Virus record (IMG/VR): IMGVR_UViG_2718218136_000008
Span: 1-48,802 of that record
Reading direction: 5' to 3' (one strand)
Length of the DNA: 48,802 nt
DNA from: a virus
Taxonomy: Duplodnaviria; Heunggongvirae; Uroviricota; Caudoviricetes
Shown here in pieces: positions 2,826-39,446 of the stretch (the stretch's first letter is position 1; every line of letters starts with the position of its first letter). The notes below the pieces were generated by a model. It made no database searches, was not told the DNA's origin, and worked only from the letters and a program-made list of their open reading frames with translations. The position numbers and the translations under genes were made by a program.

Positions 2826-3074
2826 ATGCGTATTGAAATCTGCATAGCCAAAGAAAAAATGACTAAAATGCCAACCGGTGCTGTGGATGCGTTAAAGGAA
2901 GAATTAACCCGACGCATCAGTAAACGTTATGACGATGTAGAAGTGATCGTAAAAGCCACCAGCAACGATGGCCTTTCTGTTACGCGCACCGCTGATAAAG
3001 ATTCAGCTAAAACTTTTGTTCAGGAGACTCTGAAAGATACCTGGGAGTCTGCTGACGAGTGGTTTGTTCATTAA
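2826..3074 (+). CDS. dinI: DinI-family DNA-damage-inducible protein
   Basis: 82-aa [13 protein letters not shown]...[16 protein letters not shown], resembles DinI (~81 aa) especially at the C-terminus; LexA box upstream; GGGGA RBS. Confidence 0.8.
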
Positions 3075-3105
3075 GTTCATCATCTCTGGACACCATTCAC
3101 TTGTA

Positions 3106-3135
3106 TTGACTTTAAGATCATTAAATTGTAATAAT
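3106..3135 (+). promoter_or_regulatory. sigma70-like promoter for the leader/SLATT-like/RT operon
   Basis: TTGACT (3106..3111), 18-bp spacer, AATAAT (3130..3135); predicted start just before GGGGCAGG at 3146. Confidence 0.4.
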
Positions 3136-3142
3136 TCAAAGG

Positions 3143-3296
3143 GATGGGGCAGGTTTTTCCTCTTGCGCATGCAAGGGCGGCTCTGATAATGAACAGTAAT
3201 ATTTTACTGTTGAGCTTATGCTCACTGATCCTGCCGGGCAGGATGTTCAACGGTTCCAATATATCCTGCCCCTTCCGCTTTTAAAAAGGATCTTTT
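3143..3296 (+). ncRNA. structured 5' leader / candidate non-coding RNA of the RT module
   Basis: GGGGCAGG (3146..3153) is the inverted repeat of CCTGCCCC (3265..3272); hairpins at 3164..3177, 3192..3211 (8-bp stem), 3211..3222; palindrome ATCCTGCC-G-GGCAGGAT at 3228..3244; no ORF. Confidence 0.3.
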
Positions 3297-5308: not shown

Positions 5309-5893
5309 TTACTCCATAACAGGGACCGCAGGCCACTCAATATCAGGTGCAGTTGATGTATCAACACGGTTCAGCAACACCCGATACTTCTTCCAGGCTT
5401 CCAGCAACGAGTTTTCTTCCTCCGTTGCGATCTCCAGATCTACAGCATCCTGAAGTGGCGCTATATGCTCACTGGCTACCTGCATCAGGCTGTTTTTTGT
5501 TTCTTCCGCCTCCCGGATCCGGAACAGTTTTTCTGCTTCCGTATCCTTCACCCAGGCTGTGCCGTTCCACTTCTGAAACTCCCCTTCCGGGGATAACCAG
5601 GTAACATTTTCCGGTAACGGACCGAGTTCAGAAATAAATAACGCGTCCCCTGACGCTACGTCATAAACCGTTTTACCCCGATGGTCTTCAACGAGATGCC
5701 ACGATGCCTCATCACTGTTGAAAACAGCCACAAAGCCAGCCGGAATATCTGGCGGTGCAATATAGGTACTGTTTGCTGGCAGACCTGTATGAGGCGGAAT
5801 ATATGCGTCACCTTCACCAATAAATTCATTAGTTCCGGTCAGCAGATTATAAATTTTTATGGTCCGTGGTTGTTCACTCATTCTGAATGCCAT
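5309..5893 (-). CDS. tfa: tail fiber assembly protein
   Basis: 194-aa [21 protein letters not shown]..., closely matches recalled lambda Tfa; TAATG overlap with stf stop. Confidence 0.9.
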
Positions 5894-35360: not shown

Positions 35361-35749
35361 TCAGGCAGCTGCACCCGCCGTTTTCTCGTACTTACTGATA
35401 GTGATCTCGACCTTCCCTTCCGGGATAACCGGTCCCCACTCCACCAGCATTCTTTTCACCTGACTGTCGTCTTCCCACCCCCCGCGTGGGTCAGGGCGTC
35501 AAACAGCGCCTTGTTATAGTTGTCCAGATCGCGGATCCTGTTATCCGGAGGAAACAACACGATCTCCACTGAAGCAGGTGCCGACGTTGGTTTCGGCAGA
35601 CGACGTAACTGCTCAACTATTGCTGCGCACGCCGCGCTCTGGAATTTTCGCCCCGCCGCGCTTATCAGGCTCTTACCAGCAAACGCCCCTTTGTTGGGGT
35701 GTCGCCAGTACGTGTTCACGCTGGGCGGAAAAGGCAGGATCAGCTTCAT
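35361..35749 (-). pseudogene. rusA: Holliday-junction resolvase RusA with frameshift at a G6/C6 run
   Basis: N-terminal 97-aa ORF (…RDLDNYNKALFDALTHAG) stops early; adjacent frame continues WEDDSQVKRMLVEWGPVIPEGKVEITISKYEKTAGAAA; frames meet at CCCCCC 35478..35483. Confidence 0.6.
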
Positions 35750-36072
35750 ACTTTCAGGCTCCTCTCATGTAACCAGTGGGTTGCACGCAGCCTTGCGTTT
35801 TCCTCACCGGCAAGCAGTGAGCGGATAATCCCGACCGCCTCGCTGTCGTCGTCCTTCACCGCGGTATGAAGCTTTATCCCCCGGGCCACGCCACGCTTTA
35901 TCGTGATGACGCCTTTTTTCTCCAGTGCGCGAAGATGCTCCACCGCTGCATTCACCGAACGGTATCCCAGCATGGTTGCCACCTCCTGATTGGTTGGCGG
36001 GAAGCCACGTTCTTTCTGGTAAGAAATCAGCATATCCAGCACCTGCTGCTGGCATTGAGTTAACGTCGTCAT
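35746..36072 (-). CDS. winged-helix DNA-binding protein (LexA N-terminal-domain-like)
   Basis: ~108 aa from ATG 36072 (MTTLTQCQQQVLDMLISYQKERGFPPTNQEVATMLGYRSVNAAVEHLRALEKKGVI); TAATG coupling with upstream gene. Confidence 0.55.
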   Translation of the reverse strand: MTTLTQCQQQVLDMLISYQKERGFPPTNQEVATMLGYRSVNAAVEHLRALEKKGVITIKRGVARGIKLHTAVKDDDSEAVGIIRSLLAGEENARLRATHWLHERSLKV

Positions 36073-36560
36073 TACGCCCCCACGTAATTCCCTGACAGAT
36101 ACCACTCATCACTCGATACAGCGCGCTTGCTGCTTTTCCGTAAACACTGCTCACGACGCGCCAGAAAATTGTTTCGTTCTGGCTGGGAATGGCTTTCACG
36201 GAATGCCGCCATCCACACCGTTGCAGCACGACGGTATAAGCCCCTGGACTCCAGTTCTTCAGCCTGGCGGGTCAGGCACAAAATCTCCCGCGGGTCGTTA
36301 GTGCCGACATAGAAATTGCGCACAGGTCTGGTTTCACGAACTGGTTGCGGTTCCGCCTCCTGCGCTCTCTCAGTCAGGCGCGGGAAATGTCTGCGTGTAT
36401 CCCCTTCACAACGGTGAGCCACACGACCACTCTGACGTAACTTGCTTGCTGACTGCAGAACGCGCTGCCGTGAGTAACCTGCAAAAGCATCCGCAATGTC
36501 TCCGGAAGTACACCCCGGATGGGCTTCAATGAATTTCTGAACGTCATTCAAAAGACTCAT
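36072..36560 (-). CDS. PerC-like regulatory protein
   Basis: ~162 aa; C-terminal EELESRGLYRRAATVWMAAF recalls PerC-family motif. Confidence 0.4.
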   Translation of the reverse strand: MSLLNDVQKFIEAHPGCTSGDIADAFAGYSRQRVLQSASKLRQSGRVAHRCEGDTRRHFPRLTERAQEAEPQPVRETRPVRNFYVGTNDPREILCLTRQAEELESRGLYRRAATVWMAAFRESHSQPERNNFLARREQCLRKSSKRAVSSDEWYLSGNYVGA

Positions 36561-36562
36561 AA

Positions 36563-37555
36563 TCACCCCCTGAATCCTGCCGGGATCTGGCTGTAGTCCA
36601 CGTTGTCGTAACTGGCTTTGAAGTACGGGTCTTCGCGTTTTTCGGTGTACGTGCTGACGGACGGCGATAAGCGCAGGGAAAGCTCATCCCATTTTTCCCG
36701 CAGCTTCGACGGGCTGAGCACGTTACGGCACCAGAACGGATCGCGACTGACGCGGCTGTACATCTCGCAGATTTGTTTATGAGTACGACCATCCTGCACA
36801 CACATCAGGCGAATTTCGTTTGCCCAGGCTGTCCAGTTCGGTTCTTTGGGACGAACCACCTCGCCGTCACATTCGGCGGCATGCTCGTACAGGGCGATGA
36901 TTTTTTTCCAGAGCCACTGTGCGCAGGTCAAATCATCCTGCGTTCCCCACTGGCGCTTTTTAGGGCTGAATACAACCGCATCAGGATGGCGAGTTAAAAA
37001 CTCCTGTTCAGCCGTCTGCGTGTCCGGTTGCGAAGCGTCCGGACGAGAAGAGGTTTTATTCTCTGTAGTAATCTCTGTTGTATTCTCTGTAAGATCATTG
37101 GGCCATTTTGACCCGATGACAGCGTGTCGTTTTGAACCAATGGATCGTGTCATTTTGCGCCCATCCATCAGGTCACTTTGACCCGATGGAGAAGTGCATT
37201 TTGACCTGATGGATTCGTTCACTTTGACCTCTTCTAAAAGCTCACTTTCATAGTTGATCGTGTAGAAGTTGGTCATGTCACGCTTCGATTTATTGAGTTG
37301 CTCGCGACGCAAAACCCCAAGTGATTTCAGGCTTGCAAATGTGCGTTTCAGAGTGGACTCTGACCAGAACGGAAACTGCTCCAGCCACTGTTCTGTCGTG
37401 TTATAAACCCAGCGAATTCCGCCATGCTCAGTGCCTGAATTCGTTTCATTCAGCCAGTAATGAAGCTGCTGCAACACAATTGCCTCATTCAGACCAATAC
37501 GGCATGCAAGATCACGATTTATCACAATGGGCTGGGATGTCATTAACAGGCTCAT
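36563..37555 (-). CDS. replication initiator (lambda O-like) with origin iterons inside the gene
   Basis: 330-aa ORF; N-terminal HTH-like region; internal ~23-bp iterons and AT-rich repeats; position after cII-like gene. Confidence 0.7.
   Translation of the reverse strand: MSLLMTSQPIVINRDLACRIGLNEAIVLQQLHYWLNETNSGTEHGGIRWVYNTTEQWLEQFPFWSESTLKRTFASLKSLGVLRREQLNKSKRDMTNFYTINYESELLEEVKVNESIRSKCTSPSGQSDLMDGRKMTRSIGSKRHAVIGSKWPNDLTENTTEITTENKTSSRPDASQPDTQTAEQEFLTRHPDAVVFSPKKRQWGTQDDLTCAQWLWKKIIALYEHAAECDGEVVRPKEPNWTAWANEIRLMCVQDGRTHKQICEMYSRVSRDPFWCRNVLSPSKLREKWDELSLRLSPSVSTYTEKREDPYFKASYDNVDYSQIPAGFRG
37104..37235. repeat. replication-origin iterons: six ~23-bp direct repeats (CAYTTTGACCYGATGG-like)
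   Basis: Repeat starts at 37104, 37128, 37151, 37174, 37197, 37220; flanked at 37045..37095 by AT-rich TCTCTGT repeats. Confidence 0.65.
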
Positions 37556-37724
37556 GACCGACCTCTATTTCCCTGAATTTACGACGAAACTGTTCGAGCG
37601 GACTGAAGCATTCATGTTCATAGCCTTCACGGAGGTAGATAACCCGTTGTGTTTCCGGCTCCCAACGAATGACTCTGACGGGCACTCCGTAGTGATCTTT
37701 GAACCAGCGGTTAACTTGTCGCAA
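37512..37724 (-). CDS. hypothetical small protein
   Basis: 70-aa ORF; overlaps the alternative 37565..37903 frame and the O-like start; only one is likely fully real. Confidence 0.3.
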
Positions 37725-37903
37725 AGGACTGTCTCCTTCTGCCGGTTGAAATCACCCACAGCCCACTCTGCAAAGCTGTGGGTTACAATTTCCCTGTCAC
37801 CTGGTACATTCACTGCATAGCAATACTCCACCTTCGCTTTTCCACCCGGTACAGGAAGCGCAATCAGTTGCGAGCGACGGTAGTGTGTTGTTAAACTGTT
37901 CAT
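37565..37903 (-). CDS. hypothetical protein (N-terminal half plausible, C-terminal half low complexity)
   Basis: 112-aa ORF directly after the cII-like gene. Confidence 0.3.
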
Positions 37904-38541
37904 GCGTTAGTTTCTCCACAACCAGAAGCAATCGACGCCACGACGCCCGGAGCTGCACACTCGCGGGCGTTACTCTTTTCCGGCGCACAAAAAACACGAA
38001 ATAACAGTGTTAAATGCTCCTGCCACTTCGCCATTACTTGGTAGCTGTTCTCTTCGATTTGCTCACGCTCAGCTTGGTCAATAACTCCATCAGCAGTTGC
38101 CTTGCGTAAGTACTGGGAATGCTTGCCAATCCATTCTATTGACTCCATCAGCCGCTGATTAATGTCACCATTGTCAATGTCATCAATGACCACCAGCGGC
38201 ACAAACACCCCATTACTACGACGGGCTATTGCATCCGTTACATGCCTGGTACCACTGGCATCCTGTAAAACCATGGCCCACTCAAGTGGAAAAATTTGAT
38301 CCCCACCGCTACGCAGTCTGTTATGCAATTGATCTTTTGCTGGGGTGATATCATCAGATTTATACAAACCAAGAATTTCTGCTGCTTCCTCATAGCCATG
38401 AGGTAAATCAGCAATCGTTCTTCGTATTGCTGCCACCAGCCATGCTGGTTGCTTATCAACTTTCCATTCAGGTTCTTTACCCACGTTTAAGCCCTCATAT
38501 CTGTGGTTTCTGTAAATCGATTTATCCATTAGATTTTTCAT
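37900..38541 (-). CDS. CII-like regulatory protein (possibly phage 186 CII/CP76 family)
   Basis: ~213 aa from ATG 38541; segment [23 protein letters not shown] resembles recalled CII-family pattern; immediately after cro. Confidence 0.5.
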
Positions 38542-38722
38542 AAAGCTCAGGTTTAAATGGCAACCGTCCGCAAGTTCTATATGCAGCCTCTGCTGCACGT
38601 CCTTTTGGAATTAACTGGCCAGGACGGTTTCGCCACTGATAAACGGCTTCAGTTGTTATGCCGAAAAAAGCAGCAACTTTCTCAATGCTGCCGAAGTAGC
38701 TTTCGATATCGTCAGTCGTCAT
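38522..38722 (-). CDS. cro: Cro-like HTH repressor
   Basis: 66-aa ORF with HTH (KVAAFFGITTEAVYQWRNR), divergent from cI across an operator region. Confidence 0.75.
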   Translation of the reverse strand: MTTDDIESYFGSIEKVAAFFGITTEAVYQWRNRPGQLIPKGRAAEAAYRTCGRLPFKPELYEKSNG

Positions 38723-38819
38723 ATGCCCTCCAAACTAAGTTTTATTAGATGTTAATTATCAATCTATCTTAGGTCAATAAAAACTAAGATTACTTAGTAA
38801 TTAAAGAAATGGTGCTCCT
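38723..38819. promoter_or_regulatory. cI-cro intergenic operator/promoter region (OR-like)
   Basis: Perfect palindrome CTAAG-ATTA-CTTAG (38784..38797) and related CTAAG-N5-TTAG (38735..38748). Confidence 0.5.
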
Positions 38820-39446
38820 ATGGAAACGGTTGGTCAGCGTATAAAAGCTCTGAGAAGAGTTACCAGAACGTCCCAGAAAGAATTGGGTAAATTTTGTGGA
38901 GTAAGTGACGTTGCTGTGGGGTACTGGGAGAAAGACATCAATGTCCCTGGTGGGGAAGCACTTTCAAAATTAGCGAAGTTCTTCAATACGTCAATAGATT
39001 ACATTCTTTATGGTGCGGAGTTTGAAGGCAAACTCGTCACAAACATGCGCAGAGTTCCTGTAATCTCGTGGGTTCAGGCTGGGCAGTTTACTGAGTGCAG
39101 GACAGCAGAAGTGTTTAGTGAAGTAGACAAGTGGGTAGATACATCATTAAAGATTGGTGATAACTCATTTGCATTGGAGGTTAAAGGCGACTCCATGACT
39201 AACCCTAACGGCCTCCCAACAATACCAGAAGGCGCAACAGTGATTGTAGATCCTGATGCAGAACCCCGGCATGGAAAAATAGTCATCGCTAGACTTGATG
39301 GAACAAACGAAGCCACAGTAAAAAAATTAGTTATCGATGGCCCTCAAAAGTTTTTAGTGCCATTAAATCCCCGGTACCCCAACATCCCGATCAATGGTAA
39401 TTGCCTCATCATTGGTGTAGTCAAAGGAGTTCAATACGAACTCTAG
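38820..39446 (+). CDS. cI: CI-type repressor (HTH plus S24 LexA-like autopeptidase)
   Basis: 208-aa ORF; N-terminal HTH (QKELGKFCGVSDVAVGYWEKD), C-terminal GDSM…K peptidase motif. Confidence 0.9.
   Translation: METVGQRIKALRRVTRTSQKELGKFCGVSDVAVGYWEKDINVPGGEALSKLAKFFNTSIDYILYGAEFEGKLVTNMRRVPVISWVQAGQFTECRTAEVFSEVDKWVDTSLKIGDNSFALEVKGDSMTNPNGLPTIPEGATVIVDPDAEPRHGKIVIARLDGTNEATVKKLVIDGPQKFLVPLNPRYPNIPINGNCLIIGVVKGVQYEL

Follow-up and report, generated by a model that had tools for sequence, protein, structure and literature searches.

Within a 48,802-nucleotide (nt) stretch of viral DNA (Caudoviricetes; positions 1 to 48,802 of IMG/VR record IMGVR_UViG_2718218136_000008, here called the window), a gene resembling the replication initiator gene O of phage lambda contains a series of short direct repeats (iterons) followed by three tandem 12-mers. 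This raises the question of why a protein-coding gene should carry such repeats: they could form the origin at which the phage DNA replicates, they could be sites through which the initiator is controlled, or they could reflect a repetitive stretch of the encoded peptide. The original prediction, made from the letters of the window alone, was that of a lambda-type origin within the initiator gene, and everything that can be computed (gene identity, layout, constraint on the DNA, the arrays of relatives and the partner genes) fits with it. With a probability of roughly 85%, the array and the 12-mers are likely to be the replication origin of a lambda-like (SfII/mEp460-type) Escherichia coli prophage, which would thus lie within the phage's own O-like gene for the initiator.

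An origin within an initiator gene is of a known kind (lambda, the Stx phages, P22 and phage L), and our main finding adds no new principle. What is new here, as far as we found, is that the origin is paired with a different specificity domain, and that no prior annotation or test of this origin turned up. The conservation of the 12-mer across phyla is a further part of the finding that may be new.

The initiator gene and its iteron array

The gene, its two domains and the 12-mer block are as follows:

36563..37555, minus strand: O-like replication initiator gene (open reading frame, ORF) of 330 amino acids (aa) and 993 nt, containing the iterons and the 12-mers
37235..37555, minus strand: N-terminal winged-helix domain (aa 1-107; AlphaFold2 model), presumed to bind the iterons
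36674..37009, minus strand: C-terminal domain homologous to the lambda O C-domain (tblastn expect value (E) 2e-22, about aa 183-294)
37055..37090: three tandem 12-mers, on the coding strand ACAGAGAATACA / ACAGAGATTACT / ACAGAGAATAAA, encoding the peptide TENTTEITTENK; presumed unwinding or loading element

That the repeats lie inside an O-like gene, as had been predicted, is confirmed by PHROG 391 ('replication initiation O-like'), whose profile aligns in full (positions 1-298/298) with residues 1-330 of the protein (E 3.6e-101), and by the homology of the C-domain to that of lambda O, which in a BLASTP comparison extends over roughly residues 147-294 (E 9e-27, 33% identity over 148 aa). PHROG 6493 ('DnaD-like helicase loader') matches aa 2-170 (E 3e-35). 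Scans of the initiator against Pfam (E <= 0.01) and NCBIfam returned no family; at E <= 10, Pfam gave only Slx4 and Cdc6_C, both below their cut-offs, and no match to Phage_rep_O (PF04492). The gene is 98.6% identical to that of phage mEp460_4F5, and its position matches that of lambda O, as it is preceded by a divergent cI-like repressor and by genes resembling cro and cII.

The N-terminal half is of another kind. BLASTP found no match to lambda O in the first 107 residues, and AlphaFold2 (with a 58-sequence alignment) models a winged helix with an H-H-beta-beta-H-H-wing topology at a predicted local distance difference test (pLDDT) score of 81.6, the model being disordered beyond residue 110. 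A sequence search of the PDB with the initiator returned nothing, and a 38-sequence profile returned only sub-threshold winged-helix regulators. The Pfam family DnaD_N was matched by 3 of 38 family members, at best with an E of 0.021, which is below threshold. The N-domain ends near aa 107 and the lambda-O-like domain begins further on, and the repeats occupy the region in between, with the iterons at nt 321-452 and the 12-mers at nt 466-501 of the 993 nt. The reading frame was rightly predicted to stay open through the repeats (peptide ...SIRSKCTSPSGQSDLMDGRKMTRSIGSKRHAVIGSKW...). The orientation had to be corrected: the gene is on the minus strand, and the order in the coding direction is iterons, then 12-mers.

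The six predicted starts of the direct repeats (37104, 37128, 37151, 37174, 37197 and 37220 on the plus strand) are borne out by direct reading, with gaps of 24, 23, 23, 23 and 23 base pairs (bp) between them. While the number, starts and spacing of the six ~23-bp repeats thus hold, only four of the six match the consensus well. Compared to CAYTTTGACCYGATGG, units 1-6 in start order have 1, 3, 5, 0, 0 and 4 mismatches, resulting in four good copies (37104, 37128, 37174 and 37197) and two half copies (37151 and 37220). The half copies retain only the CAYTTTG(A/C)(C/G)C part on the plus strand, which is GGTCAAARTG or GCGCAAAATG on the coding strand. Read in the coding direction, the iteron unit is CCATYGGKTCAAARYG and the core of the array is GGTCAAAATG. 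In that direction, the array consists of the following elements (sequences of the units are those of the coding strand):

37220..37235: iteron unit 6 (first in the coding direction), half copy, AGAAGAGGTCAAAGTG
37197..37212: iteron unit 5, full copy, CCATCAGGTCAAAATG, 0 mismatches
37174..37189: iteron unit 4, full copy, CCATCGGGTCAAAGTG, 0 mismatches
37163..37175: inverted partial copy ATCCATCAGGTCA, 13 nt, the perfect complement of 37202-37214 (TGACCTGATGGAT)
37151..37166: iteron unit 3, half copy, GGATGGGCGCAAAATG, where relatives have GGAAGAGGTCAAAATG
37128..37143: iteron unit 2, full copy, CCATTGGTTCAAAACG, 3 mismatches
37104..37119: iteron unit 1 (closest to the 12-mers), full copy, TCATCGGGTCAAAATG, 1 mismatch

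The inverted partial copy lies between units 3 and 4 and forms, together with unit 4, the near-palindrome CCATCGGGTCA-AAG-TGACCTGATGG; single-strand folding predicts a hairpin at this copy (37163-37175). A TCCATC...GATGGA dyad within the iteron array is partly retained in relatives. The six-unit layout as a whole is retained in close enterobacterial relatives, in which the half reading GGTCAAARTG is likewise present in units 3 and 6.

Families of 23-bp repeats were recovered by a repeat search of the window, and Tandem Repeats Finder (TRF) detects no more than 2.5 copies, the best ones, out of six. As the array is too degenerate for TRF, which misses most of the units, a pattern search allowing mismatches was used instead, together with a chain test that is described below. 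Searching both strands of the whole 48.8-kb window with CAYTTTGACCYGATGG and at most three mismatches gave 8 matches, against 1.5 expected, a number reached by 0 of 100 shuffles. Five of these eight fall inside the 110 bp of the array (four direct and one inverted, the latter at 37165-37180), and the three remaining matches are isolated single sites at 5669, 8964 and 26058. This pattern search found no second comparable repeat cluster in the window. DnaA boxes were not found near the origin, the window having two (12631 and 23706), and a scan of 36400-39000 for promoters and terminators found nothing inside the origin.

Relatives, module exchange and constraint on the DNA

A genome scan for relatives, identified through the N-domain alone, gave 80 loci of 45-82% identity across phyla, ranging from Citrobacter, Pantoea, Xenorhabdus and Pseudomonas to Bacillus-group, Staphylococcus and Lactobacillus genomes. 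The chain test was applied to the 76 usable loci, with a chain being defined as at least three 11-mers with at most two mismatches, 21-25 bp apart and 250-600 nt into the gene. Such a repeat chain is present at the same position in 45 of the 76 relatives, whereas among 289 control segments taken from these loci only one contains a chain. The sequence of the repeat is clade-specific, with a CAAAATG-like core recurring in many:

Enterobacteria: GGTCAAAATGA
Pantoea: GGGCAATTTGC
Pseudomonas luteola: ATGAGGGCAAT
Limosilactobacillus: GATCGGATCAA
Psychrobacter: AACGACAAATT

Conservation of position and period, combined with a sequence that is specific to each clade, is the pattern expected of binding sites for the N-domain.

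The two halves of the gene have different relatives. SfII, SfIV and many other phages have 97-99% DNA identity to the window over the C-terminal half only, while the N-terminal halves of the SfII and SfIV genes are unrelated and have their own repeats with a 15-bp period. No ACAGAGA 12-mers were found in the O-like genes of SfII and SfIV. In SfII (L002), a GATTTTGACGGGTCA-like array is seen at the equivalent position (3024-3146), where it encodes DPSKSDASKSDPSKFDASKS. The border between the two halves is located as follows:

37049..37050: mosaic junction; downstream in the coding direction near-identical to SfII-type O genes, upstream unrelated

Because this junction immediately follows the 12-mers, the N-domain, the iterons and the 12-mers move as one specificity module relative to the C-domain. 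The same modular exchange is known from lambda/phi80/82 hybrids.

The repeats are conserved as DNA. A period of 23 bp is not a multiple of 3, and the iteron units are consequently read in all three frames; the peptide around the iteron core is VK, RSK, GQS, RKM, GSK and GSK. For a codon-identity test, 13 enterobacterial relatives were codon-aligned and identical residues were scored for an identical codon. Synonymous-codon identity is 0.8-0.98 over 37237-37050, versus 0.4-0.6 in the N-domain, and this despite an amino-acid identity that is lower in the origin region than in the N-domain. The frames, the codon identity, the codons of the 12-mers (see below) and the repeat arrays of distant relatives establish that the constraint acts on the DNA and not on the peptide.

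The 12-mer block

Next to the iterons, the original prediction had placed an AT-rich stretch of TCTCTGT repeats. The repeat is real and consists of the three 12-mers at 37055-37090 (TRF: period 12, 2.7 copies), but the stretch is only moderately AT-rich and turns out to be a specific, conserved 12-mer and not a generic AT tract. The 48 bp around the 12-mers have 31% GC, compared to a window mean of 50%, and they are the least stable 48-bp duplex of the gene, within the top 1.75% of the window. These 48 bp are also 100% identical to those of HannyBb and mEp460_ev081, whose genes are ~78% identical overall.

The peptide motif of the 12-mers, (T/S/P)(E/D)x(T/S), is present in 43 of the 80 relatives. 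At these 43 loci, the codons of the 12-mers are nearly fixed: glutamate is encoded by GAG in 112/112 cases (background 48%) and threonine by ACA or ACT in 214/215 (background 55%). The resulting consensus is ACAGAGAnTACw, in which the third codon positions 3, 6 and 9 are 97-100% invariant. Within the unit only positions 8 and 12 vary freely, while the number of units varies between 2 and 4 tandem copies. Conservation of the unit reaches from Enterobacteria as far as genomes of Staphylococcus, the Bacillus group and Tissierellia, and the 12-mers are always placed directly after the last iteron.

The element extends beyond these relatives. A scan of viral contigs for two adjacent 12-mer units gave matches in at least 120 contigs. 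Among the matches listed, the 12-mer always lies in an ORF and in the T-E-x-T frame, the ORFs being mostly of initiator size, and it sits 0 to ~220 codons from the start of the open frame, with the small distances due to ORFs cut by contig ends. Among the 120 matches listed, 72 fit the N-domain profile; the other 48 comprise some truncated ORFs, and the rest fall below the profile threshold. When eight profile-negative 12-mer initiators were scanned with Pfam, none of the eight (0/8) had a Pfam family in its N-domain and one had a Phg_2220_C C-domain. Another profile-negative 12-mer ORF (L178) has, by eye, a lambda-O-like C-terminus. The 12-mers also occur in initiator genes whose N-domains lie outside the profile and whose C-domains are different. 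In the open-access literature we found no description of the 12-mer or of the initiator family, text matches being primers and unrelated papers.

It is possible, if on balance doubtful, that the stretch called AT-rich is a sequence-specific origin element, made of 2-4 tandem copies of ACAGAGAnTACw directly after the last iteron. If so, a very large class of temperate-phage origins would have this site in common. The 12-mer could then be bound by the initiator in a strand-specific manner once the duplex has melted, in the way that plasmid Rep proteins and lambda O each bind a single strand of their AT-rich region, or, alternatively, it could serve helicase loading or priming. As a defined sequence that can be mutated, the 12-mer lends itself to the question of which features other than AT-richness make up the opening or loading site in phage origins.

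An alternative for this block, which we regard as very unlikely, is that it is mainly a recombination linker at which origin-specificity modules and C-terminal modules are swapped, and not a working part of the origin. The SfII-type mosaic junction lies immediately beside the 12-mers, the block is common to initiator genes that differ in both domains, and it is 100% identical between genes that are only 78% identical overall, all of which would be expected of such a linker. However, a unit that is kept from Enterobacteria to Staphylococcus, the Bacillus group and Tissierellia, with only positions 8 and 12 free, is conserved unit by unit, and together with the variable number of units this indicates selection on each unit rather than recent exchange. 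The fixed place right after the last iteron and the low stability of the duplex, the lowest in the gene, also argue for a part in the origin. The two roles of the 12-mers, in recombination and in the origin, may coexist.

Proposed origin function, helicase delivery and distribution

Taking the array and the 12-mers as an origin, replication could proceed as follows. Rightward early transcription from the immunity region would express the initiator; the only promoter-like site in 36400-39000 (38749-38777, minus strand) is one that precedes the cro-like gene. The winged-helix N-domain would bind the iterons (37104-37235), mainly at the four full sites, resulting in a nucleoprotein complex comparable to the lambda O-some. 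Strain from this complex would open the adjacent 12-mer block (37055-37090), and the lambda-O-like C-domain would then bring in the host DnaB helicase.

Relatives of the N-domain are found with a range of partner genes for this last step. In the Izhakiella locus L007, the N-domain relative is followed by lambda P (Pfam E 1e-56); in L018, L032 and L047 by IstB/DnaC-like loaders; and in L055 by a DnaB-type helicase. In L020 (Pantoea) and L008, small PerC-like or DUF977 genes follow the initiator. The coupling of one N-domain to different helicase-delivery systems is as expected of an origin-binding initiator. L007 carries the GGTCAAAATG iteron type of the window, and the two enterobacterial loci in which P follows have this iteron type. 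In lambda, the C-terminal domain of O binds P. L007, with P following, was expected to have a lambda-O-like C-domain; BLASTP found none there.

The window itself has none of these partners. A tblastn search with lambda P, a second P homolog, three IstB-like loaders and one DnaB helicase found no P, IstB/DnaC-like or DnaB-like gene in its 48.8 kb, and this leaves the recruitment step without a partner from among these genes. The helicase would then come via host factors or via direct contact with the C-domain. Within the regions inspected, P, DnaC/IstB-like and DnaB-like genes are likewise not found in SfII and mEp460_4F5. Viable phages such as SfII, SfIV and mEp460 have a lambda-O-like C-domain without P, making the recruitment of DnaB a testable question. 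The initiator ends in ...IPAGFRG, and similar ends are seen in four relatives, HannyBb and ev081 (both IPPGFRG), Citrobacter (IPEGFRG) and E. albertii (IPSGFRG), though not in P0016. A host factor might dock on this type of C-terminal peptide.

Besides the missing partner, several other points weigh against an origin. The units are without the clear internal dyad of the lambda iterons, with only the CAT...ATG ends being symmetric, and the low-stability block, at 31% GC, is less extreme than the lambda AT tract. Foldseek finds just weak winged-helix matches for the N-domain in the PDB (E about 0.01, template modelling (TM) score about 0.45). These matches include the RepA_N initiators 4pql, 5kbj and 4pt7 (E 0.011-0.046, TM 0.38-0.51), at a level comparable to that of generic winged-helix regulators. 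Lastly, no experiments on origin activity or iteron binding for this N-domain family were found in the searchable literature.

Could the repeats instead be sites for control? In this case they would bind the initiator or a regulator for autoregulation, for copy-number handcuffing or as a roadblock like SPP1 oriR, and the prophage would initiate replication elsewhere. Plasmid iterons and the second G38P site of SPP1 (oriR) have such roles, G38P binding at oriR reportedly stalling forks (PMC3485210), and constraint on the DNA shows that there is a function, not which one. We nevertheless think this very improbable: the array adjoins the least stable duplex of the gene, which is the exact arrangement of lambda; the module of N-domain and iterons travels with varied helicase or loader partners; and the pattern search of the window found no second comparable cluster of repeats. 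Hardly credible, and rejected here on the frame argument and the codon statistics, is that the repeats merely reflect a repetitive, flexible peptide linker between two domains and that their DNA has no role, since, although the encoded peptide is of low complexity (SIRSK, SIGSK, VIGSK; TENT, TEIT, TENK) and the AlphaFold model is disordered after residue 110, the 23-bp period spans three frames, identical residues share their codon in 80-98% of cases despite an amino-acid identity below that of the N-domain, and the 12-mers use GAG for 112/112 glutamates and ACA/ACT for 214/215 threonines.

An origin in the middle of the initiator gene has its closest counterpart in lambda, where ori is likewise located between the DNA-binding N-domain and the C-domain of the initiator. 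The annotated iterons of lambda O, four in number and spaced 20/24/23 bp, start 348 nt into the gene, while those of the window start at 321 nt. In both, a low-stability tract follows the iterons in the direction of transcription, with purines on the coding strand, the C-domains are homologous (E 9e-27), and the genes follow cro and cII-like genes. Unlike lambda O, the protein of the window has an N-domain that is unrelated in sequence and does not match Phage_rep_O, and its iterons differ in sequence and are without the strong internal dyad of ATCCCTCAAAACGAGGGA. The window further differs in having six units instead of four, a tract of specific 12-mers and, downstream of the initiator, a PerC-like gene instead of P.

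Other phages share parts of this anatomy. In lambda and the Stx phages, the origin consists of iterons and an AT-rich tract in the middle of O, and the O proteins of Stx phages bind only four of six iterons efficiently, the extra two being needed for replication (PMC7466680). The Stx phages 933W and P27 thus have six iterons of which four are bound well, and in the window four of six units look full; however, the Stx phage O proteins and iterons are close variants of those of lambda, with P, whereas the N-domain and iterons of the window belong to another family, without P. Gene 18 of P22 and phage L also has clade-specific iterons inside the initiator gene, in modules that are interchangeable (bioRxiv 10.1101/2020.10.05.325894). 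P22 and L pair their initiator with their own DnaB-type helicase (gene 12), as L055 does and the window does not. Phages of the SfII/SfIV/mEp460 type have the same C-terminal half and the same downstream genes as the window (PerC-like, LexA-DNA-binding-like, RusA and KilA-N), also without P, while SfII and SfIV differ from it in their N-domain, their 15-bp-period GATTTTGACGGGTCA repeats and their lack of ACAGAGA 12-mers.

In SPP1 (G38P/oriL), the origin lies within the gene of the origin-organizing protein, and helicase-loader or helicase genes follow. Among the relatives of the N-domain, those from Firmicutes bear the annotation DnaD-like, and the genes after them are IstB-like loaders or small genes about the size of G39P. 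RepA_N plasmid initiators bind iterons inside their own gene and have a winged-helix N-domain, as is predicted for the initiator of the window, though the fold matches are weak and there is no sequence similarity.

The N-domain and origin are widespread. Most of a 611-bp segment covering them is present, at >=80% identity, in 1763 of 5426 complete E. coli genomes, where the RefSeq label is mostly 'hypothetical protein' and in some cases 'phage replication protein O'; the present assignment is of use for annotation. A homologue search with the N-domain profile gave 1789 protein clusters, and no Pfam or NCBIfam model covers the domain. Phage isolates from Klebsiella, Erwinia, Pseudomonas, Staphylococcus, Bacillus and Listeria have members of the family too, under annotations such as replication initiation or DnaD-like protein. 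Of the E. coli 'plasmid' records, two (NZ_CP081704.1 and NZ_CP081794.1 (L206)) are circular phage genomes of 43.7 kb; L206 has a 993-bp copy of the initiator gene (98.7% identical over the protein part compared), the same neighbours and no plasmid replicon typed. These circular records may represent replicating or excised phage DNA captured in assemblies, and as extrachromosomal molecules with the same gene they give circumstantial support for autonomous replication.

As for the neighbouring genes, the one directly downstream of the initiator (36072-36566, minus strand) encodes a small protein that matches PerC in its C-terminal half (Pfam E 7.6e-10) and, weakly, a MarR-type regulator at its N-terminus (PHROG 1687). 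A PerC-family gene is located at the same place in SfII and in the 43.7-kb circular E. coli record, the L020 counterpart matches PerC too, and at further loci of Enterobacteria and Pantoea the initiator is followed by small genes of this sort. This linkage suggests a role of the PerC-like gene tied to replication or early regulation. On the other side of the initiator, the ORFs 37512-37724 and 37565-37903 (both on the minus strand) share 160 nt, which they read in different frames, and each of them matches a known family. The former, of 70 aa, is a DUF4222 protein (Pfam E 1.5e-18) and has a 44-nt overlap with the beginning of the initiator gene. The latter, of 112 aa, matches PHROG 1170 over its full length, with its first 63 residues matching PHROG 20047; this longer ORF may be an over-call, or else the overlap is real or a frameshift is present.

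Downstream of the PerC-like gene and ahead of the LexA-like one, SfII and mEp460_4F5 have a dam methylase gene, which is missing in the window. The RusA gene of the window (35456-35749, minus strand) encodes a protein that is identical to SfII RusA for 90 residues and then diverges, ending at 97 aa compared to 129. This change is probably a frameshift, and the rusA gene of the prophage may be defective.

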